Below, piece by piece: positions 4,074 to 53,065 of a stretch of 64,000 bases of DNA (within the stretch, counting starts at the first letter, position 1; each line of letters opens with the position of its first letter). The notes beneath the pieces are model-generated. The model did no database searches. It saw nothing but the letters and a program-made list of their open reading frames with translations, and was not told where the DNA came from. This DNA comes from Kiritimatiellia bacterium (GTDB taxonomy: Bacteria > Verrucomicrobiota > Kiritimatiellia > RFP12 > UBA1067). The position numbers were made by a program, and so were the translations under genes. The stretch spans positions 62,473-126,472 of the forward strand of contig DAOPZC010000003.1 of the NCBI GenBank assembly GCA_035353175.1. The letters run 5' to 3'.

Positions 4074-4121
4074 ACCGTTACAGTTTATCCGATCTCCCGG
4101 AAAGCGTCAAAGCCCCCTCCT

Positions 4122-4160
4122 GAAAACAAAAAAGCCGCCGGTCTCCCGGCGGCCTCTTTC
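4122..4160 (-). terminator. rho-independent terminator downstream of the Pro/Ala-rich protein gene
   Basis: On the minus strand the sequence reads GCCGCCGG-gaga-CCGGCGGC followed by TTTTTTGTTTT. This is an 8-bp GC stem with a U-tract, about 15 nt after the stop at 4172. Confidence 0.6.
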
Positions 4161-4171
4161 AGCAGCGCGCA

Positions 4172-5218
4172 TCAGTTCACGATGCGCCCGGGGCAGGGCA
4201 GCTCGGGGCCTTCGATGAAGGCTATGGCGTTCTTCCCTTTGACCGGGCCGACCGCCTGCGCGGCCAAGATCCACAGCAAAGCCGCCACGAGCACCGTCGC
4301 CGCGATCGCGGCAATGACCGAAATCGTCGTGAGCACCGAAGACTCCTCTTTCGCGGGGAAATCGATCGGGCTGAGGGGCGTCATCTGAACGCCCTCGGGG
4401 AACGCCTCGCCCTCTGCGGCGGCGCCCTCTTCCTTGGCGGCGCTGGGGCGCTTAATCTTCAGCGTCTTCTTCTGCGTCACAGACGCGTTGTCCGCGGCCA
4501 GCGCTTCGGCGGTCGGCAAGGCGGAGTCCGGAATGCGCGAGGTCTGCCGGGCCGCCGCCGTCGAGGGTTTCTGGACCGTGGGCGAGACCGGCGTCGCCGC
4601 CAGGTCCATCGGACGTTTCAGGCGGATCGTCTTCGGCCCTTCCTTCTCGGCGCCCACGGGGGCCACGCCGATCGCCGAATCCAACGAAATGCGCGAGGTC
4701 TTGGACTTCGCGGCCTGCACTTGCGCGCCCGACGGCGGCTTGGGGCCTTCCGGCAGAGGATTGGAACCGGGCGTCGGCGGATGCTGCGGCTGCAGCGGCG
4801 CGTTCAGGGGCGCGGGAGCGGCCGCCACCGGCTCGATCTTGGTGATCGGCTGCGTGGCCCCCGGCATATGGGCTGGCGCAGCCGAAGGGGCCATCACCGG
4901 GCGGAGCCGGACAGTCGCGGGACGGATCGCCGACGGCGTTACCGCCGCCACGGACTCGGGCACCGGGACGCGCGCGGTCGCGCGAGGATTGGCAGGCGCA
5001 GCCGCCGGAATGCCGACCGCCGGAGCGGCGGGAGCTTCGGCGGCCTCGGCAGGCTTGGCCGCATCCGCCGCAGGCGCGACCGGACGCAGTCGGACCGTGA
5101 TCGGGCGCGGGGCGCCCGGAGCAGCGGCGGGCGTGATCGGCGAAACCCCCTCCGGCTTAGTAAAGGGCAACACTTTCGGGGGAATCGCTCCCTGGGTAAC
5201 CTCATCCTGATCAGCCAT
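4172..5218 (-). CDS. Pro/Ala-rich, C-terminally membrane-anchored hypothetical protein
   Basis: A Shine-Dalgarno GGAGG precedes the ATG at 5218. The protein has a low-complexity P/A/V-rich N-terminal ~290 aa with internal repeats (ITVRLRPVAPA / ATVRLRPVMAPSAAPA) and a single C-terminal TM helix (VLTTISVIAAIAATVLVAALLWILAA). It is followed by a clean terminator. Confidence 0.55.
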   Translation of the reverse strand: MADQDEVTQGAIPPKVLPFTKPEGVSPITPAAAPGAPRPITVRLRPVAPAADAAKPAEAAEAPAAPAVGIPAAAPANPRATARVPVPESVAAVTPSAIRPATVRLRPVMAPSAAPAHMPGATQPITKIEPVAAAPAPLNAPLQPQHPPTPGSNPLPEGPKPPSGAQVQAAKSKTSRISLDSAIGVAPVGAEKEGPKTIRLKRPMDLAATPVSPTVQKPSTAAARQTSRIPDSALPTAEALAADNASVTQKKTLKIKRPSAAKEEGAAAEGEAFPEGVQMTPLSPIDFPAKEESSVLTTISVIAAIAATVLVAALLWILAAQAVGPVKGKNAIAFIEGPELPCPGRIVN

Positions 5219-5251: not shown

Positions 5252-5815
5252 TTACACGGCCATCACTTCCGCCTCTTTGTTTTTCAGTTCGCTGTCAATT
5301 TTCGCGATGTGGGCATCCGTCGCTTTCTGCACCTCATCGAAGCCGCGGTCCCGCTCGTCTTCCGTGATCTTGCCGTTCTTCTGCAGCGTCTTGACCAGTT
5401 CGTTCGCGTCGCGCCGCACATTGCGCACCGCGATGCGGGCCTCTTCGGACTGGCGCTTGGCCACCTTGACGATCTCCTTGCGGCGCTCCTCGTTCAGCTC
5501 CGGAATCGGGACCCGCACCACACGCCCGTCGTTCCGCGGCGTGACGCCGAGGTTGGCCGCGAGAATCGACTTCTCGATCTCCGGCAGGGCCGTGGGATCA
5601 TAGGCGCTGATCACAATCAGGCGCGGCTCCGGCGTCGAGATGTTCGCGATGTCGCGCAGCCGCGTCGGCACGCCGTAGTACATCACCTGCACGCCGTCCA
5701 CCAGCGCGGGCGAAGCCTTGCCCGTGCGCAATCCGGCAAACTGGTCCTTCAACACCTTGAGCGTGTTGTCCATCTTCTCCATCGCGTCGAGAAGCACTTC
5801 GTCTAACGTTTCCAT
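5252..5815 (-). CDS. frr: ribosome recycling factor
   Basis: Full-length RRF-like sequence (METLDEVLLDAMEKMDNTLKVLKDQFAGLRTGKASPALVDGVQV...RVPIPELNEERRKE...). Shine-Dalgarno AGGAGA upstream; sits directly after pyrH as in the conserved pyrH-frr pair. Confidence 0.95.
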   Translation of the reverse strand: METLDEVLLDAMEKMDNTLKVLKDQFAGLRTGKASPALVDGVQVMYYGVPTRLRDIANISTPEPRLIVISAYDPTALPEIEKSILAANLGVTPRNDGRVVRVPIPELNEERRKEIVKVAKRQSEEARIAVRNVRRDANELVKTLQKNGKITEDERDRGFDEVQKATDAHIAKIDSELKNKEAEVMAV

Positions 5816-6538: not shown

Positions 6539-6651
6539 AATCCGCTTATACTTGACACCACTCCGTTGCGTTTCCAGAAACGCCCCCTTTCAGCGCATTA
6601 TCAGAAACGGCAATAGCTTACCTAAACACCCCTGAAAGGTAAACCGCTTTT

Positions 6652-7467
6652 TTACCCCAGCGCCACGTCGAGAAACATCATGGTGGCGAAGCCGGCCATC
6701 ACGCCCATCGTGGGCACGTCCGAGCCGCGCGTCGACTGGGCTTCCGGAATCAGCTCCTCGGCCACCACGTAGATCATCGCCCCCGCCGCGAAGGCCAGCG
6801 CATAGGGCAGCGCCACCGCCATCTGGGTCACTGCGACCGCGCCGGCCACCGCCGCGATCGGCTCCACGACCCCCGAGGCCTGGCCGTACACAAAGGCCTT
6901 CCACCGCGAGAAGCCCTCGCGCCGCAGCGGCACCGAGACCGCCGCGCCCTCCGGAAAATTCTGCAGCCCGATGCCGATGGCCAGCGCCACCGCGCCGCCC
7001 AGCGTCGCCCCGTTGCCGCCCGCCGCCAGCGCGCCGAACGCCACGCCGACGGCCAGTCCCTCCGGAATGTTGTGCAGGGTGATCGCCAGCACCAGCAGCA
7101 CGCTGCGCCGCCAGTGCGTGTGGATGCCCTCGGGCTCTGCGTTGTGGTGCCCGCTCGGGTGCAGATGCGGCAGCAGCTTGTCCGACAGCCACAGAAAGCC
7201 CCCGCCCGCCAGAAAGCCGGTCACCGCAGGGACCACCCCGGAGCCGCCCGCCTTTTCCGCCATCTCGATCGCCGGCGCCAGGAGCGACCAGAACGAGGCC
7301 GCGATCATCACGCCCGAGGCGAAGCCGAGCATGCCGTTGAGCACGCTGCGGTTGATCGTCTTGAAAAAGAAGACGAGGCCCGCCCCGAGCGCCGTCACCC
7401 CCCACGTGAAGAGCGACGCGAAAAACGCCTGCGTCACATGTCCGTACGGTGTCAGCCACTCAGCCAT
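6652..7467 (-). CDS. zupT: ZIP family zinc transporter (ZupT-like)
   Basis: Eight TM helices and the metal-binding signature [13 protein letters not shown] / [10 protein letters not shown]. The ATG at 7467 is preceded by GGGGG; the track starts at an in-frame GTG 6 nt upstream. Confidence 0.85.
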
Positions 7468-7484
7468 TGGCACCCCCTACATAA

Positions 7485-7579
7485 TGAGGAGTTAGGAATG
7501 AGGAATGCGAAGGTGGCGAATTCCTGCTGGTGAAAGAGGATCGTAACTCCTAATTCCTGACTCCTAATTCCTAATTAGC
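7485..7579. promoter_or_regulatory. AT-rich inverted repeat of AGGA-containing pentamers in the murA 3'UTR / zupT leader
   Basis: Arms at 7488-7504 (ggagttaggaatgagga) and 7548-7564 (tcctaattcctgactcc) are 15/17 complementary across a 43-nt spacer, with an extra partial copy at 7562-7575. Local GC is ~40% against a ~64% background. Confidence 0.3.
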
Positions 7580-8872
7580 TTAGTCGTTCACGCGCTCGAT
7601 GCTCGCGCCCAGCCGCCGCAGTTCGACCTCGACCGACTCGTAGCCGCGGTCGATGCTGCCCGCGTTGTGGATCTGGGTCTCACCCTTCGCGCAGAGCGCG
7701 GCGATCAACAGCGCCATGCCCGCCCGGATGTCGGGACTCGCCACGCGCGTGCCGTGAAGCGGCGCGGGGCCCGTCACCACCACGCGATGCGGGTCGCACT
7801 GCACGATGCGCGCGCCCATGCCGATCAGGTGGTCCACAAAGTACATGCGGCTTTCGAACATCTTCTCGAAGAAAAGCGTGGTGCCCCGCGTCTGCGTGGC
7901 CAGCACGATCAGCACGCTCATCAGGTCCGAAGGGAACATCGGCCACGGCCCGTCCTCGATCTTCGGGATCGCGTCGCCGAGGTCGTACGCCGTCTTGAGC
8001 CGCTGCCGGGCGGGGAGCTTGAGCGTCTTGGCCGCGCGGTCGATCACGCAGCGCACGCCGAAGCGTTTGAACGGCTTTTCCAGCGTCTCGAAATCGGCGG
8101 GCTCGATGTCCGCGATGGTCAGCTCGCCGCCGGTGACCAACGCCGCCGCCAGATAACTGCCCGCGTCGATGTAGTCCGGTCCGATCCGCTGCTCCGTGCC
8201 GTGCAGCGACTCGGCGCCCTCGATGGTCAGGCGGTTCGTGCCGAGGCCCTCGATCTTGCCGCCCATGGCGTTGATCATGCGGCAGAGATCCTGCACGTGC
8301 GGTTCGCACGCGGTGTTGTAGAGCGTGGTCGTGCCCTTGGCCAGCGCGGCCGCCATGATCAGGTTTTCGGTGGCGGTCACACTGGCCTCGTCCAGCAGGA
8401 TCCGCTGCGCCTCGAGGCGCTTGGCGGCCTTGAAGATGTACGTGCCGTTGGTGCGGACCGCCGCGCCGAGCTGGCGGAAGCCGTCGAGGTGGGTGTCGAT
8501 GCGGCGGCGGCCGATCACGTCGCCGCCCGGCGGATAGAGCTTGGCCGAGCCGCAACGGGCCAGCAGCGGCCCCGCGAACAGGATGGAGGAGCGCACCTTG
8601 CCGCAGAGCGCCCTGTTGAGATGTGTGCTCTTGACGCGCTTGGCGCAGATTCGGACCGTGTGTGCCTCGGCGTTCAGGTCGACGTCGGCGCCCATGTCGG
8701 AGAGCAGCTCCAGCATGGTGCGGACATCCGCGATGAGCGGCAGATTGCTCAACGTCACGGGCTCGGGCGTCAGCAGGCTCGCGGCCAGCATCGGGAGCGC
8801 GGCGTTCTTGTTGCCGGGCACGCAATGGACGCCGCTCACCGGCTTGCCGCCTTTAATGACAAATCGGGACAT
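7580..8872 (-). CDS. murA: UDP-N-acetylglucosamine 1-carboxyvinyltransferase
   Basis: MSRFVIKGGKPVSGVHCVPGNKNAALPMLAASLLT... is a canonical MurA N-terminus, ~430 aa. The ORF track extends 47 codons upstream to 9013, but the conserved start is the ATG at 8872. Confidence 0.9.
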   Translation of the reverse strand: MSRFVIKGGKPVSGVHCVPGNKNAALPMLAASLLTPEPVTLSNLPLIADVRTMLELLSDMGADVDLNAEAHTVRICAKRVKSTHLNRALCGKVRSSILFAGPLLARCGSAKLYPPGGDVIGRRRIDTHLDGFRQLGAAVRTNGTYIFKAAKRLEAQRILLDEASVTATENLIMAAALAKGTTTLYNTACEPHVQDLCRMINAMGGKIEGLGTNRLTIEGAESLHGTEQRIGPDYIDAGSYLAAALVTGGELTIADIEPADFETLEKPFKRFGVRCVIDRAAKTLKLPARQRLKTAYDLGDAIPKIEDGPWPMFPSDLMSVLIVLATQTRGTTLFFEKMFESRMYFVDHLIGMGARIVQCDPHRVVVTGPAPLHGTRVASPDIRAGMALLIAALCAKGETQIHNAGSIDRGYESVEVELRRLGASIERVND

Positions 8873-10918: not shown

Positions 10919-13900
10919 ATGCTGGACCCGAGATACCGATCGACGCTCATTCTCGCAGCAGCCTTTTTCCTCTGCATCTCAACGAGTCGCTCCGAGCCGC
11001 CCAAAGCCCTCGCCGACGTCCGCGTCTTCGCGGTCTATGAGCCGGTCATGAGCCGCCAGGACGTCGAGCTTTTGGCGCGCGTCCATCCCGATTTCGTCTG
11101 CCGAGGCTGGTTCAAGTGGCACCACACCCCCGACTGGCGCGCGTACACCCCGCTCGCACAGGCCTGCGCCGAACAGGGCATTCTGCTACAGGGCGGCATC
11201 ACCCTCTCGGCGATCTATCCCGGCGAGAACGGCATGGACGACGCGGCCTTCCGCGATTTCGCAACCCACGGCACCGACGGGCAACCCTACCACTGCCGCA
11301 TGGCGGACAACGGCGGCTGGTACCAGCTCAGCCTCTATAACCCGAAAGTGATCGCGTATCTCAAGCGCGAGGTGCGCCTGCAGATCGACGCCGGCGCGGT
11401 CGGCATCTGGTACGACGAGATCGAAGGTTTCTACGACTGGAACCCGACCGAAGGCTACGACCCTTACGCCTGCGCCGCGTTCCGCGACTGGCTGATCCGC
11501 AAATACTGCGGCGGCCAAGGCTGGCGCGAGAACGACCCGCGCTGGCAGACGCAGTTCGGCATCGATCTCGCGAAACACGGCGGCACCATCCGCACCTTCG
11601 ACTATCTGCGCCACCTCCAGATCACGCCCGGCCGAGACGGTCAACCCCTCGCGGCCAATCCGGCGCAAGGCCACCCGCGCGCCTGGGCAACCTCTGCCAA
11701 CCCGCTCTACCGCGAGTGGGGCTTCGCGTGGGACCGCAAGGCCGCCGGCACCTTCCGTTTCGACACCGTGGCCGCGCTCTTTGCGGACATCCTCGCGGAT
11801 GCCGACCGCTACGCCCGCGAACGTTACGGACGCACGCTGATCAACACCTACAACCACAACGGCACGGCGCGCCCCGGCGTCGCTTTCCTCCAGCCGCACA
11901 ACGGCGCGCAGCCGCCGCTCCGCCACGGACGCCTCGACGGGCGCGCCAGTTACCTCACCTACTATGAGGATCTCATCGCCGATGCCGCGGGCCCTTGCCC
12001 CGGCCAGCCCGTCGTCTTCTTCGTGGACTGGCCCGGCGAGATCGACCGACTGGTCGCCCTGCCGCGCGCCGACCAGACCCACTTCTTCCGGATCTACATC
12101 CCCGAGGCGTATGCCGCCGGCGGCGAATTTGCCCTGCCGCTGCGCGGCTACTCCTATGTGGCCGCCCGGCAAGGCACGCTGGCCGCGCTCACGCGCATGG
12201 CCGACTTCTACCGCGAGTACGCGCCCTTCCTGCGCGGCTCGAAGCCTGGGGGCGCGGGCGGCCTCGTCCGCGATGAGTTCGACCGACTCACGGTCCGTCT
12301 CCGTTCGACCGCAGCCGGCACCGCCGTCCACATCGTCAACCACGCCTTCTCCACGCGTGACGTCTGGCCTTCGCCCCGCACCAACCTCTGTGTGACGCTG
12401 CCCTGGAGCGCCGCCGCGCCAGATTCCGCCTTCGCCGTCTCTCCCGATTTTCCTGACCAGCGTCCCGTGCCGGTATCGCTCAAAGACGGACAGCTCACGC
12501 TCGACGTCGGAACCGTCACCTGCAGTGCGCTCGTGCTGTTGCCCGAGCCCGATGCCCTGCGCCCGCTCACCGGGACCGCACCGAGCGGCACCCACATCGT
12601 CGACCCGCACGGCCGCGCGATGGCGGTCGCGCGCGACGGCCGCTTCACGCTCTGGCTGCCGCCGTCCGAAGGCGTCGGTCTCTGGCGCCGCCTGCTGGGG
12701 CGCGAGGCGTGCGCCACGCGCGAGCTGAAGTGCCTGGAAACCGGCGAGCGCCAGCCCGCGCGCGACGGCGCCGTTTTCGCCGCGCCGCCTGCGGGCGGCT
12801 TCGCCTCCGGCCTGTTGCTCGACGGGTTCGGCATTCCTCTGCGCCACACCGCGCTGACCTGCGGCACGCACCGCTGGCACACCGACGCCTGGGGCCGCTA
12901 CCGCGTGCCGTTGGCGCACGCCTCCGACGCACCGCTGACGGTCTGCGGCGAGGACGGGGCCGTGCACACGCTGGCCCTGTCCGACCGCTTCACCGCCCTC
13001 CGCCTCTTACCTGCCCGCACCCGCATCGGCGACTTCGCCGCATCGCAGGGCGGATACTGGGCCAACTGGCCCGACAAGGAGCGGCTCCGCGGCGTGATCG
13101 CGCTCGCCCGCGAGCGCCACCAAGAGCGCGACGCACTGCGCTGCACCTTCTCGCCCTCGCCATCCGTTCCGTGGTCGAACATCAACTCGCCCGCCTTCAC
13201 CCTCGAAACGGCGGACGCGGTCGAAGTGGTTTACGCAGGCGACGGCACAACGCGCACCGTCCACGCCGTGCTGCATGCGAACGGCCGCTTCTACCGCGCG
13301 CCGCTCGACCTCTCCGCTACAGGGTGGACCGTCAAGCGCATCGCGCTCGGCGAGTTTCGCGACGACCAGGGCGCGCCGTTCGACCCCGCCGCGCACACCG
13401 GCACCGCCGCCTTCCAGCTCGCACCGGCGGGCCTCGGCACCGCGCCCGCCACGCTCTGGCTGCACCGCGTCGCGCTCGTCACCGACACCCCCGTCGTGAC
13501 GCTGTGGCAGAGCGACGCCGCCTTTGACGACGCGGACGTCGACCACCTGCGCGCGGACCACCGCCCGCAACCGCCTCCGCCCCGCGCCGCAGCGCGGCAG
13601 CCGCTGGCGCGCTTCACCGACCCGGCCGCGCGCCACCTCGCCAACTGGGCCGAGAAGAGCGCGGCAGACAAACCGCTGGTCGCCATCGAGCGAGTGGCGC
13701 CGCCGGCCTCGCCGCCCTTCCTGCGGATCACCCTGGCTGCGGGCGAGTGCGCGTGGGGCAACGCCAACATTCCGCTGCCCGCGGACAAACTCGCCGGGAC
13801 GAGCGGCCTCGCCCTGCGGCTGCGCCACTCGCCTGCGACCGAGGATGTGACGGTCGCGCTCCACACGTCCGTCGACGGGAAAAACGCGTTCTTTCAGACG

Positions 13901-39869: not shown

Positions 39870-40093
39870 TCATTTCTCCTTCGTGGTTGAGCCCTGCGGT
39901 ATCCTAATCCGCAAACGAGACAGAGTATAACGGAAGGAAGAGAAAGAGGGTAATGAAAGTTGATCGCCCCGCCGTTCGCGTTTGATGGCCAGGGCACGTC
40001 AATCACCGTCCTGTCAAAAGGCGAAGACGACGATGACATCTGTTTGACCGATATTCGGCTCCATTCTACGAACGGCCCAGCGAGATTGGCACT

Positions 40094-40195
40094 TAGGAAT
40101 TATCTAGTTCCTGATCGTAATCATAATCGTAATCCTCTCACACCCGCAAATCGGGATTAAGATTATGAGAAAGATGAAGATTAGGATTAGAATCA
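40094..40195. repeat. AT-rich island with inverted pentamer repeats (TAATC x3 facing GATTA x4) plus a small AGGAA/TTCCT hairpin
   Basis: TAATC at 40118, 40124 and 40130; GATTA at 40155, 40161, 40178 and 40185; the arms are ~12/16 complementary. A hairpin AGGAA-ttatctag-TTCCT sits at 40095-40112. GC is ~32% against a ~64% background. The island lies in the 5' leader/promoter region of the GH109-like gene. Confidence 0.5.
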
Positions 40196-40228
40196 AGATT
40201 TCCGCGCCGACACCCTTTTATGTCCCCT

Positions 40229-47799: not shown

Positions 47800-48224
47800 T
47801 GCGATTACTCCTTCCTTAGTCCGTGCGTTCCGAACCTAATACATCGCCATTTTAAGGCTTCCGGCGTATGCCGTCAATGCTGGGGGTTGCTGAGGGTCGC
47901 GGCAGAGGGTTGCGAGGACGGGCGCATCCTTGAGTCAGGCGGCTGATGCCCCGTCCATAGGGAGTCGATCAAGATAAGCGTGTTGGAATAGGAGCATCGA
48001 AATCGGCATCGGGATCGAATACCTTGCGATTCAATCACGATAGGAACCACGCTGGACTGCTCAAAATGGACGATTCCGATCCCGATATCGATAGCGATTT
48101 GGAGGGAGAGAAGACTGTCGGCATGGGCTGGCTAAGGAAAGAGAGAGGACGGAGTTGCCGAAACCAGAAAACAGAAATCAGTTCAGGCGCATGGTCCTCG
48201 AACGCTGAGACGCGAAACCGGCAG

Positions 48225-52995: not shown

Positions 52996-53065
52996 CGGCT
53001 CGACGCAGCCTCGCCCTCCATGTAAAAACGGTCGAATTTCTGGAGGGCGAGGCTGCGCCGAGCCG
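52996..53065. repeat. long near-perfect inverted repeat (25-bp stem, 20-nt loop)
   Basis: Left arm CGGCTCGACGCAGCCTCGCCCTCCA (52996-53020), loop tgtaaaaacggtcgaatttc, right arm TGGAGGGCGAGGCTGCGCCGAGCCG (53041-53065); 24/25 complementary. It lies in the 190-bp spacer between two minus-strand genes. Confidence 0.6.

Follow-up and report, generated by a model that had tools for sequence, protein, structure and literature searches.

Results

Paired heptamer tracts lie between murA and a transporter gene

We have analysed a 64,000-nucleotide stretch of a Kiritimatiellia genome (contig DAOPZC010000003.1, positions 62,473 to 126,472; referred to as the window) with a focus on the spacer between murA and the gene of a ZIP-family metal transporter, which contains an inverted pair of heptameric repeat tracts that we call element 1. 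Both genes are encoded on the minus strand. The upstream gene, murA, occupies positions 7580-8872, ends in a TAA stop codon at 7582-7580 and is identified by a Pfam EPSP_synthase match and by NCBIfam TIGR01072 (458 bits, over the cutoff). The downstream gene lies at 6652-7467, begins with ATG at 7467-7465 and matches Pfam Zip. An earlier note on this DNA had labelled the pair murA and zupT; murA and a transporter are indeed present, but the label zupT goes too far, because the protein scores 146 bits against the 252-bit cutoff of the ZupT equivalog model, and 'ZIP family' is thus the safer name. The spacer, at 7468-7579 and transcribed on the minus strand, measures 112 nt to the ATG. Its G+C content is 45% when 106 nt are counted and 46% when all 112 nt up to the ATG are included, compared with 65.5% for the window; the value of about 40% given earlier for the 106-bp spacer was too low.

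Element 1 consists of two arms and a central region. On the transcript, the 5' arm (7541-7577, minus strand; units AGGAAUU-AGGAGUC-AGGAAUU-AGGAGUU) starts 3 nt past the murA stop codon. AGGA occurs at 7572, 7565, 7558 and 7551, and again at 7525; the four GGA motifs noticed earlier after the murA stop are thus real, although their spacing is exactly 7 nt rather than 7-8 nt. Tandem Repeats Finder (TRF) reports this arm as a tract at 7544-7576 (TAATTCC, period 7, 4.7 copies), inside which positions 7546-7572 form a perfect 14-nt duplication (period 14, 1.9 copies, 100%). The 3' arm (7482-7507, minus strand; AUUCCUC-AUUCCUA-ACUCCUC-AUUA), delimited by TRF and by its pairing in the minimum free energy (MFE) fold, ends 4 nt before the Shine-Dalgarno (SD) sequence of the ZIP gene; it corresponds to a second TRF tract at 7483-7507 (AATGAGG, period 7, 3.6 copies) and carries UCCU at 7504, 7497 and 7490, in steps of 7 nt, with one more UCCU at 7540. 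The transcript unit can be written (A/G)GGANUN, and its complement follows 36 nt downstream. Element 1 therefore presents itself as a heptamer array in which at least two tandem 7-nt units of heterogeneous sequence (by TRF) are joined by a second, convergent tract of the complementary unit (by a reverse-complement unit match), in an intergenic position 3 nt past the murA stop and between two minus-strand genes.

Direct reading confirms that 7488-7504 and 7548-7564 are complementary at 15/17 positions, and a repeat finder extends the arms to 25 nt (7482-7506 and 7553-7577, 84% complementary). The same program lists six inverted-repeat pairs in the spacer, five of which are shifted registers; one of these, at 7562-7574, is the 'third copy' described earlier. 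Both arms are periodic, so that pairing is possible in several registers. The central or apical part of the hairpin (7508-7540, minus strand), delimited by alignment and from the spacer sequences, has a core, CUUUCNC...AAUUCGCC, which is recognisable in a hairpin-bearing spacer (L167; related loci fetched for comparison with the window carry an L and a number) and in a hairpin-less one (L174), the latter match being weak, about 20 nt long and made by inspection. Judged from these sequences, this region probably represents the original spacer, on either side of which the arms came into being. The 11-mer GGAATTAGGAG shows no enrichment within the window.

The spacer RNA is predicted to form one long hairpin

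The spacer RNA (7582 to 7468) folds into a single imperfect hairpin of -34.6 kcal/mol (z -2.74), a stability reached by 0/200 shuffles; when coding flanks are added, the signal is diluted to z -0.70. The plus strand of the spacer folds about equally (-37.2 kcal/mol). The earlier proposal of a structured RNA is therefore borne out to the extent that a long AGGA/UCCU hairpin is predicted for the spacer RNA or for either DNA strand. All four AGGA motifs are base-paired in the stem in both MFE and centroid folds, and none lies in a loop. The SD sequence of the ZIP gene, AGGGGG at 7473-7478 (minus strand, 5 nt 5' of the ATG), is free in the full-length fold and lies outside the hairpin. CAUUAUGUAGGGGG follows the A+U-rich stem, and there is no U-tract. 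A scan of 7468-7579 found no terminator-like and no sigma-70-like promoter sites on either strand, on which grounds we also rejected an antisense small RNA. A search against Rfam 15 gave no match at gathering score in the whole window and none at E<=10 in 7300-7750.

The hairpin is confined to one branch of orthologous spacers

Orthologous murA–ZIP junctions were recovered through close ZIP homologues and yielded seven distinct Kiritimatiellia spacers. The hairpin is absent in 5/7 and occurs only in the window species, a 97% strain and the closest relative (MurA 92%). Two further assemblies with the same sequence as the window (L081/L082) carry an identical hairpin, while the strain (L163/L164; ZIP 97%, MurA 100%) differs from it by 3 substitutions, all of them compatible with the fold. 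In the closest other lineage (L167-169; MurA 92%) the hairpin is homologous, shorter and more diverged: a MAFFT alignment of L167 with the window places a 7-nt gap close to the start of the 5' arm, and direct reading gives about 3 AGGA-type units vs 4-5 in the window, with greater divergence in the 3' arm. Both the number and the sequence of units thus differ at this locus between the window and L167. Four relatives (L165, L166, L177 and L172; MurA 79-90% for L165 and L172, which have complete genes) have spacers of 19, 34, 13 and 20 nt without a hairpin. The short distance of 13-34 nt in these four implies that ZIP is probably co-transcribed with murA. A further group (L174-176; MurA 90%) has a G+C-rich spacer of 75 nt with neither AGGA periodicity nor hairpin. 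When the upstream regions of 80 ZIP homologues of other phyla were scanned, no comparable element was found. The pairing and GGA spacing whose lack in orthologues the earlier note had named as telling against its idea are, accordingly, missing together from most of the distinct orthologous spacers, and the idea is largely undone on this count.

The window and L163 differ at 3/112 spacer positions, compared with 14/431 third-codon positions in murA and 10/272 in ZIP, so that divergence of the spacer is roughly what synonymous sites show. The covariation analysis suggested earlier for related spacers returned no compensatory pairs among the three distinct hairpin sequences, with a score under that of shuffles.

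Sister hairpins are built from other units

By examining the A+T-rich islands of the window, we found two further hairpins of the same architecture, both between confirmed co-directional genes and both recovered as a TRF pair, in the predicted fold and by the repeat finder. Element 2 (40100-40210, minus strand) is a hexamer hairpin in which 3.5 copies of ATCGTA face 7.7 copies of GATTAA; it lies 18 nt past the stop codon of a GFO_IDH_MocA gene, folds with -44.3 kcal/mol (z -3.7) and is identical in 9 independent assemblies. Element 3 (47994-48098, minus strand) combines 4 copies of GCATCG with CGATCC and CGATAG (AUCGNN units), is flanked by an LVIVD-repeat gene and a Laminin_G_3 gene, and folds with -39.7 kcal/mol (z -2.45) into 5-bp helices that are split by one mismatch every 6 nt. 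The window thus holds 3 inverted tandem-tract pairs, where 200 block shuffles gave 0.015 on average (TRF followed by a reverse-complement unit test), and 7/9 of its A+T-rich intergenic tracts are members of inverted pairs. Given that the same architecture is built with ATCGTA/GATTAA and GCATCG/CGATCC units, the AGGA content of element 1 appears incidental to a generic repeat hairpin.

More examples were found in related, Kiritimatiellota-like loci (L087, L103, L105, L107, L118, L119, L134/135/137/154, L136, L140 and L162), each with its own unit of 6-9 nt (or 14 nt). In 6/8 co-directional cases the element starts at most 50 nt past the upstream stop codon. One hairpin family, however, is found 52-67 nt upstream of murA, in a spacer between divergent genes, and the class is thus not simply one of 3'-end signals. 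This family consists of orthologous heptamer hairpins (L134 684-879, L135 1857-2067, L137 3572-3782 and L154 5735-5933) with varying unit number, whose 125-140-nt 'loop' holds another heptamer tract (GTGAGAT/GTGAAAT). The dominant units are ATAGTAG/CTACTAT in L135 but ATAATAG/CTATTAT in its orthologues L134 and L154, such that both arms differ in step, which points to concerted evolution of the arms. A strand test for selection at the RNA level found the sense strand to be more stable in 8/12 independent class members, which is not significant. We also considered a single mismatch every 6-7 nt as a rule for the class; it fits elements 1 and 3 and fails for L107 (21/21 paired) and L135 (28/29), and was discarded. 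A phase-variable contingency repeat was likewise rejected, since element 1 is the same in L081/L082 and keeps its unit number in the 97% strain, and since element 2 is identical in 9 assemblies.

Several other repeats were seen beside these elements. A small AGGAA...UUCCU hairpin adjoins element 2 at 40093-40113, and a unit family akin to that of element 2 (TAATCGTAATC / GATTACGATTA) recurs in L087 (12306-12464), apparently at a site that is not orthologous. In L093, an 83% MurA relative, the intergenic stretch 12770-12900 contains TTAGGAG/TTAGGAT, CACAGAG (three copies) and CCTCACRG (three copies) tracts in series; the first of these is of the element 1 unit type, as a direct array only, and CACAGAGGG is also found as an inverted pair in L105 (9073-9212). 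Downstream of murA, L112 has three consecutive palindromes around ACAGCTGT about 80-170 nt 3' of the stop codon, L118 has a 200-nt hairpin of -82 kcal/mol at 1500-1700 with the arm UUUUCAACAGGGAA in two copies, and L103 has three copies of GTTCTAAA at 5275-5400. The window also contains, at 52996-53065 between two minus-strand genes, a G+C-rich inverted repeat with 25-nt arms (24/25 complementary) and a 20-nt loop; it is without an obvious U-tract and could be terminator-like or REP-like (resembling repetitive extragenic palindromes), unlike the A+T-rich repeat hairpins.

Observations on the neighbouring genes

Homologues in Bacillota, Bacteroidota, Desulfobacterota, Chloroflexota and Spirochaetota (L001-L080) share about 65-73% identity with the ZIP protein; identity of this degree across phyla is unusually high and could mean strong conservation or horizontal spread. 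The 113-nt spacer that separates ZIP from pyrH (window 6539-6651), the pyrH leader, shows 0/113 differences between strains and holds the hairpins GGUUUACCU...AGGUAAGC and GCGUUUCUGGAAACGC, which are without an Rfam match. In L086, L087 and L089, ZIP is absent and the pyrH leader directly follows the murA stop codon, making ZIP a presence/absence gene at this spot. Because hairpin and ZIP together looked like an indel relative to these three loci, an integron attC site was considered as well; it was rejected, as core sites (RYYYAAC/GTTRRRY) are absent (the best by inspection being GTTAGGA, 6/7), the hairpin lies upstream rather than downstream of the ORF, and ZIP follows murA elsewhere without a hairpin.

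Discussion

What kind of element separates murA from ZIP? We consider it fairly likely that the feature is a slippage-born inverted pair of heptameric repeat tracts, that is, a hairpin like those of the short tandemly repeated repetitive (STRR) sequences or the (GGGANTN)n repeats, which is tolerated in an operon spacer. Its AGGA content is a property of the unit and does not speak for a device based on CsrA, an anti-SD or zinc sensing. We envision a single origin of the element, in an ancestor shared by the window species and the L167 lineage and inside a short murA–ZIP intercistronic spacer, after which its arms would have gained or lost whole units, as replication slippage predicts. The complementarity of the arms would probably have been kept by template switching or by (weak) selection for pairing. 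The hairpin would be transcribed together with murA and is predicted to form an imperfect stem, about 35 bp long. At the base of this stem the murA stop codon, 3 nt away from the 5' arm, would come to lie beside the ribosome-binding site of ZIP, which is 4 nt away from the 3' arm. If stop codon and ribosome-binding site are kept adjacent in this manner, then an insertion of about 100 nt would be looped out, and could thus be tolerated where relatives have only 13-34 nt. At most, the hairpin might play a REP- or STRR-like role, such as protection of a 3' end, processing, or the preservation of translational coupling, and any function, including any effect on the expression of murA or ZIP, would probably be generic.

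Among the simple-sequence repeats of bacteria, those with heptameric units are over-represented, and the kind to which element 1 belongs has already been described in Xanthomonas and cyanobacteria; for Kiritimatiellota, a literature search found no earlier report of it. Of the (GGGANTN)n repeats of Xanthomonas, 89-93% are intergenic. Their mean distance to the 5' neighbouring ORF is 28 nt, most have co-directional ORFs on their two sides, and each genome contains 70-75 convergent pairs with stem-loop potential; the repeats differ in length between species, and no function was found for them (Rehm et al., 2015, PMC4692102). Together with the GGGGA(C/T)T repeats of Nostoc, they resemble element 1 in their 7-nt unit of near-identical consensus (AGGANTN in element 1), in the heterogeneity of units, in their intergenic place just past the 5' ORF and between co-directional neighbours, in having two convergent tracts with stem-loop potential, and in the variation of length and sequence at a given locus between genomes. 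Xanthomonas-like unit variants occur at the murA–ZIP locus itself, namely GGGAATT in strain L163 and TGGAATC in L167. The Xanthomonas and Nostoc repeats contain GGG or GGGG runs, however, whereas element 1 has GG only (with one GGG in L163); a stable G-quadruplex is not expected, and that aspect of the known repeats does not apply here. Furthermore, one unit family dominates in Xanthomonas, with about 185 sites, whereas the Kiritimatiellota hairpins seen here each use a different unit.

A second parallel is offered by the 7-bp STRR hairpins of cyanobacteria, which are located in the hupS–hupL spacer and upstream of hoxW and have been proposed to act in transcript stability or translational coupling (PMC2670836). 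Like element 1, they are 7-bp tandem units that form a hairpin in an intercistronic operon spacer and are not conserved in sequence between strains; they differ in using other unit sequences, and in belonging to a few genome-wide families that are mostly direct arrays, whereas the tracts of the window are mostly inverted pairs (7/9). The REP elements and bacterial interspersed mosaic elements (BIMEs) of enterobacteria share with element 1 the form of intergenic, transcribed, imperfect palindromes just past stop codons in operons, and a likely mode of action as 3' stem-loops with an effect on mRNA stability or downstream expression. REP sequences are, however, G+C-rich, 20-40 nt long, conserved over hundreds of copies and linked to REP-associated tyrosine transposases (RAYTs), in contrast to the A+U-rich, roughly 95-nt element 1 with its tandem units and unique sequence. 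Finally, the TAACTGA heptamers of Beggiatoaceae form intergenic arrays of 2-6 units near ORFs and have a scattered phylogenetic distribution (PMC4679880). They resemble element 1 as intergenic heptamer arrays close to ORFs, yet almost all of them are direct arrays just upstream of start codons and predicted to be unstructured, whereas the two tracts of element 1 are inverted and form a hairpin.

Several observations sit uneasily with a slippage-born hairpin of this known type. The antisense strand of element 1 is slightly more stable than the sense strand, the L167 version of the hairpin is only as stable as its shuffles (z +0.1), and the lack of compensatory changes in three sequences leaves selection for pairing unproven. 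The unit of element 1 has GG where the Xanthomonas and Nostoc repeats have a GGG run. Only one AGGA-type hairpin is present in the window and the fetched loci, a sample in which many copies per genome are not evident. Hypervariability within the species is not seen either, element 2 being the same in 9 assemblies, which is a poor fit to very active slippage.

Might element 1 instead be a dedicated intercistronic RNA switch? In such a device the UCCU arm would act as an anti-SD for ZIP and the AGGA arm as an anti-anti-SD, so that formation or cleavage of the hairpin (for example by RNase III) would determine how well ZIP is translated or how stable the two halves of the mRNA, murA and ZIP, are relative to each other. 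The hairpin is indeed significantly stable, and once the 5' arm is removed from the RNA, the UCCU tract pairs with the GGGGG of the SD in the MFE structure. Other genes of the source genome have SD sequences of the GGAG/GAGG/GGGGG type, which makes AGGAG SD-like in this organism, although resemblance to an SD is not enough to make a regulator of the tract. Masking of the SD may even be a theme at ZIP genes: in the predicted fold of the hairpin-less spacer of L174 (2481-2561), a small hairpin pairs CCUUUCG with the GGAGG SD of ZIP, a fold that is no better than shuffles. The alternative folds of element 1 fare no better (z +0.3), and with the SD free in the full-length fold, the SD/anti-SD gate that had been suggested for ZIP loses its footing. 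An element missing in 5/7 orthologous spacers, without covariation and with near-neutral divergence, is not what a conserved switch would lead one to expect, and the same architecture recurs elsewhere with unrelated units. We therefore regard a functional switch as unlikely, if the best of the regulatory alternatives.

Transcription termination or attenuation of murA, also raised earlier, is improbable. The hairpin starts 3 nt past the murA stop codon, and most class members are located just downstream of a stop codon, as a terminator would be. However, the spacer offers an A+U-rich rather than a G+C-rich stem and no U-tract, the scan detected no terminator-like site in it, and one class member sits in the divergent spacer upstream of murA (L134/135/154). 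The source genome does use standard terminators: a canonical intrinsic terminator, GCCGCCGGGAGACCGGCGGC then UUUUUUGUUUUC, is found at 4100-4136 (minus strand), 3' of the proline/alanine-rich 348-aa gene at 4172-5218.

A miniature mobile element (a MITE, for miniature inverted-repeat transposable element, or a REP-like sequence) inserted between murA and ZIP is also quite improbable. It would account for the presence/absence polymorphism among relatives and for the palindromic build, and the occurrence of the TAATCGTAATC unit family at apparently non-orthologous sites, in element 2 and L087, might be taken as a trace of mobility. Yet blastn-short finds element 1 only at the orthologous locus in the window and all fetched loci, inspection reveals no target-site duplication or conserved terminal motif, and every class member has a different sequence. 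Moreover, the core appears homologous to the hairpin-less L174 spacer, and the arms thus seem to have grown in place.

The two remaining proposals of the earlier note find hardly any room. A CsrA/RsmA platform, on which CsrA dimers would dock at regularly repeated A(N)GGA motifs, either for the control of ZIP or for the titration of CsrA, is very doubtful: GGA is the core CsrA binding determinant, and a series of four AGGA motifs in exact 7-nt steps, with a fifth further on, is suggestive, but all four are paired in the predicted stem, the SD of ZIP is without GGA, the element is missing from most orthologues, the sister elements are entirely devoid of GGA, and tblastn queries with the CsrA proteins of E. 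coli and B. subtilis found no csrA in the window or the 0.81 Mb of related loci, a search that was not genome-wide. Least probable of all is a DNA operator of the Zur/Fur or another repressor type controlling a zinc transporter, since, although the idea is invited by an inverted repeat that precedes the gene of a metal transporter and some ribbon-helix-helix repressors bind arrays of 7-8-bp units cooperatively, the arms are 36-46 nt apart and form no compact box, no promoter-like site is nearby, the gaps of 13-34 nt in four relatives imply co-transcription, the repeat is not conserved upstream of most orthologous ZIP genes or of the 80 homologues, and no fur/zur is encoded in the window or the same related loci, again short of a genome-wide search.

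For the biology of the ZIP transporter, then, the story of a zinc, CsrA or SD switch is unsupported, and a documented kind of repeat takes its place. For the lineage as a whole, Kiritimatiellia appear to carry heptamer-type repeats mainly as inverted hairpin pairs, built from many different units and with unit-wise co-variation of the arms, a property that, if traced through whole genomes, could help to separate a 'by-product of slippage' from a 'selected RNA or DNA structure'. A more far-reaching and, at present, rather unlikely scenario is that Kiritimatiellia actively maintain inverted short-repeat hairpins as a class with a function, with an own 6-9-nt unit at each site and arms that change in concert, and that these hairpins serve in intercistronic RNA processing, stability or coupling, or as substrates of hairpin-directed repeat expansion. 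If this were true, comparative genomics in a new phylum would make it possible to test the function of the STRR, GGGAATC and TAACTGA heptamers.

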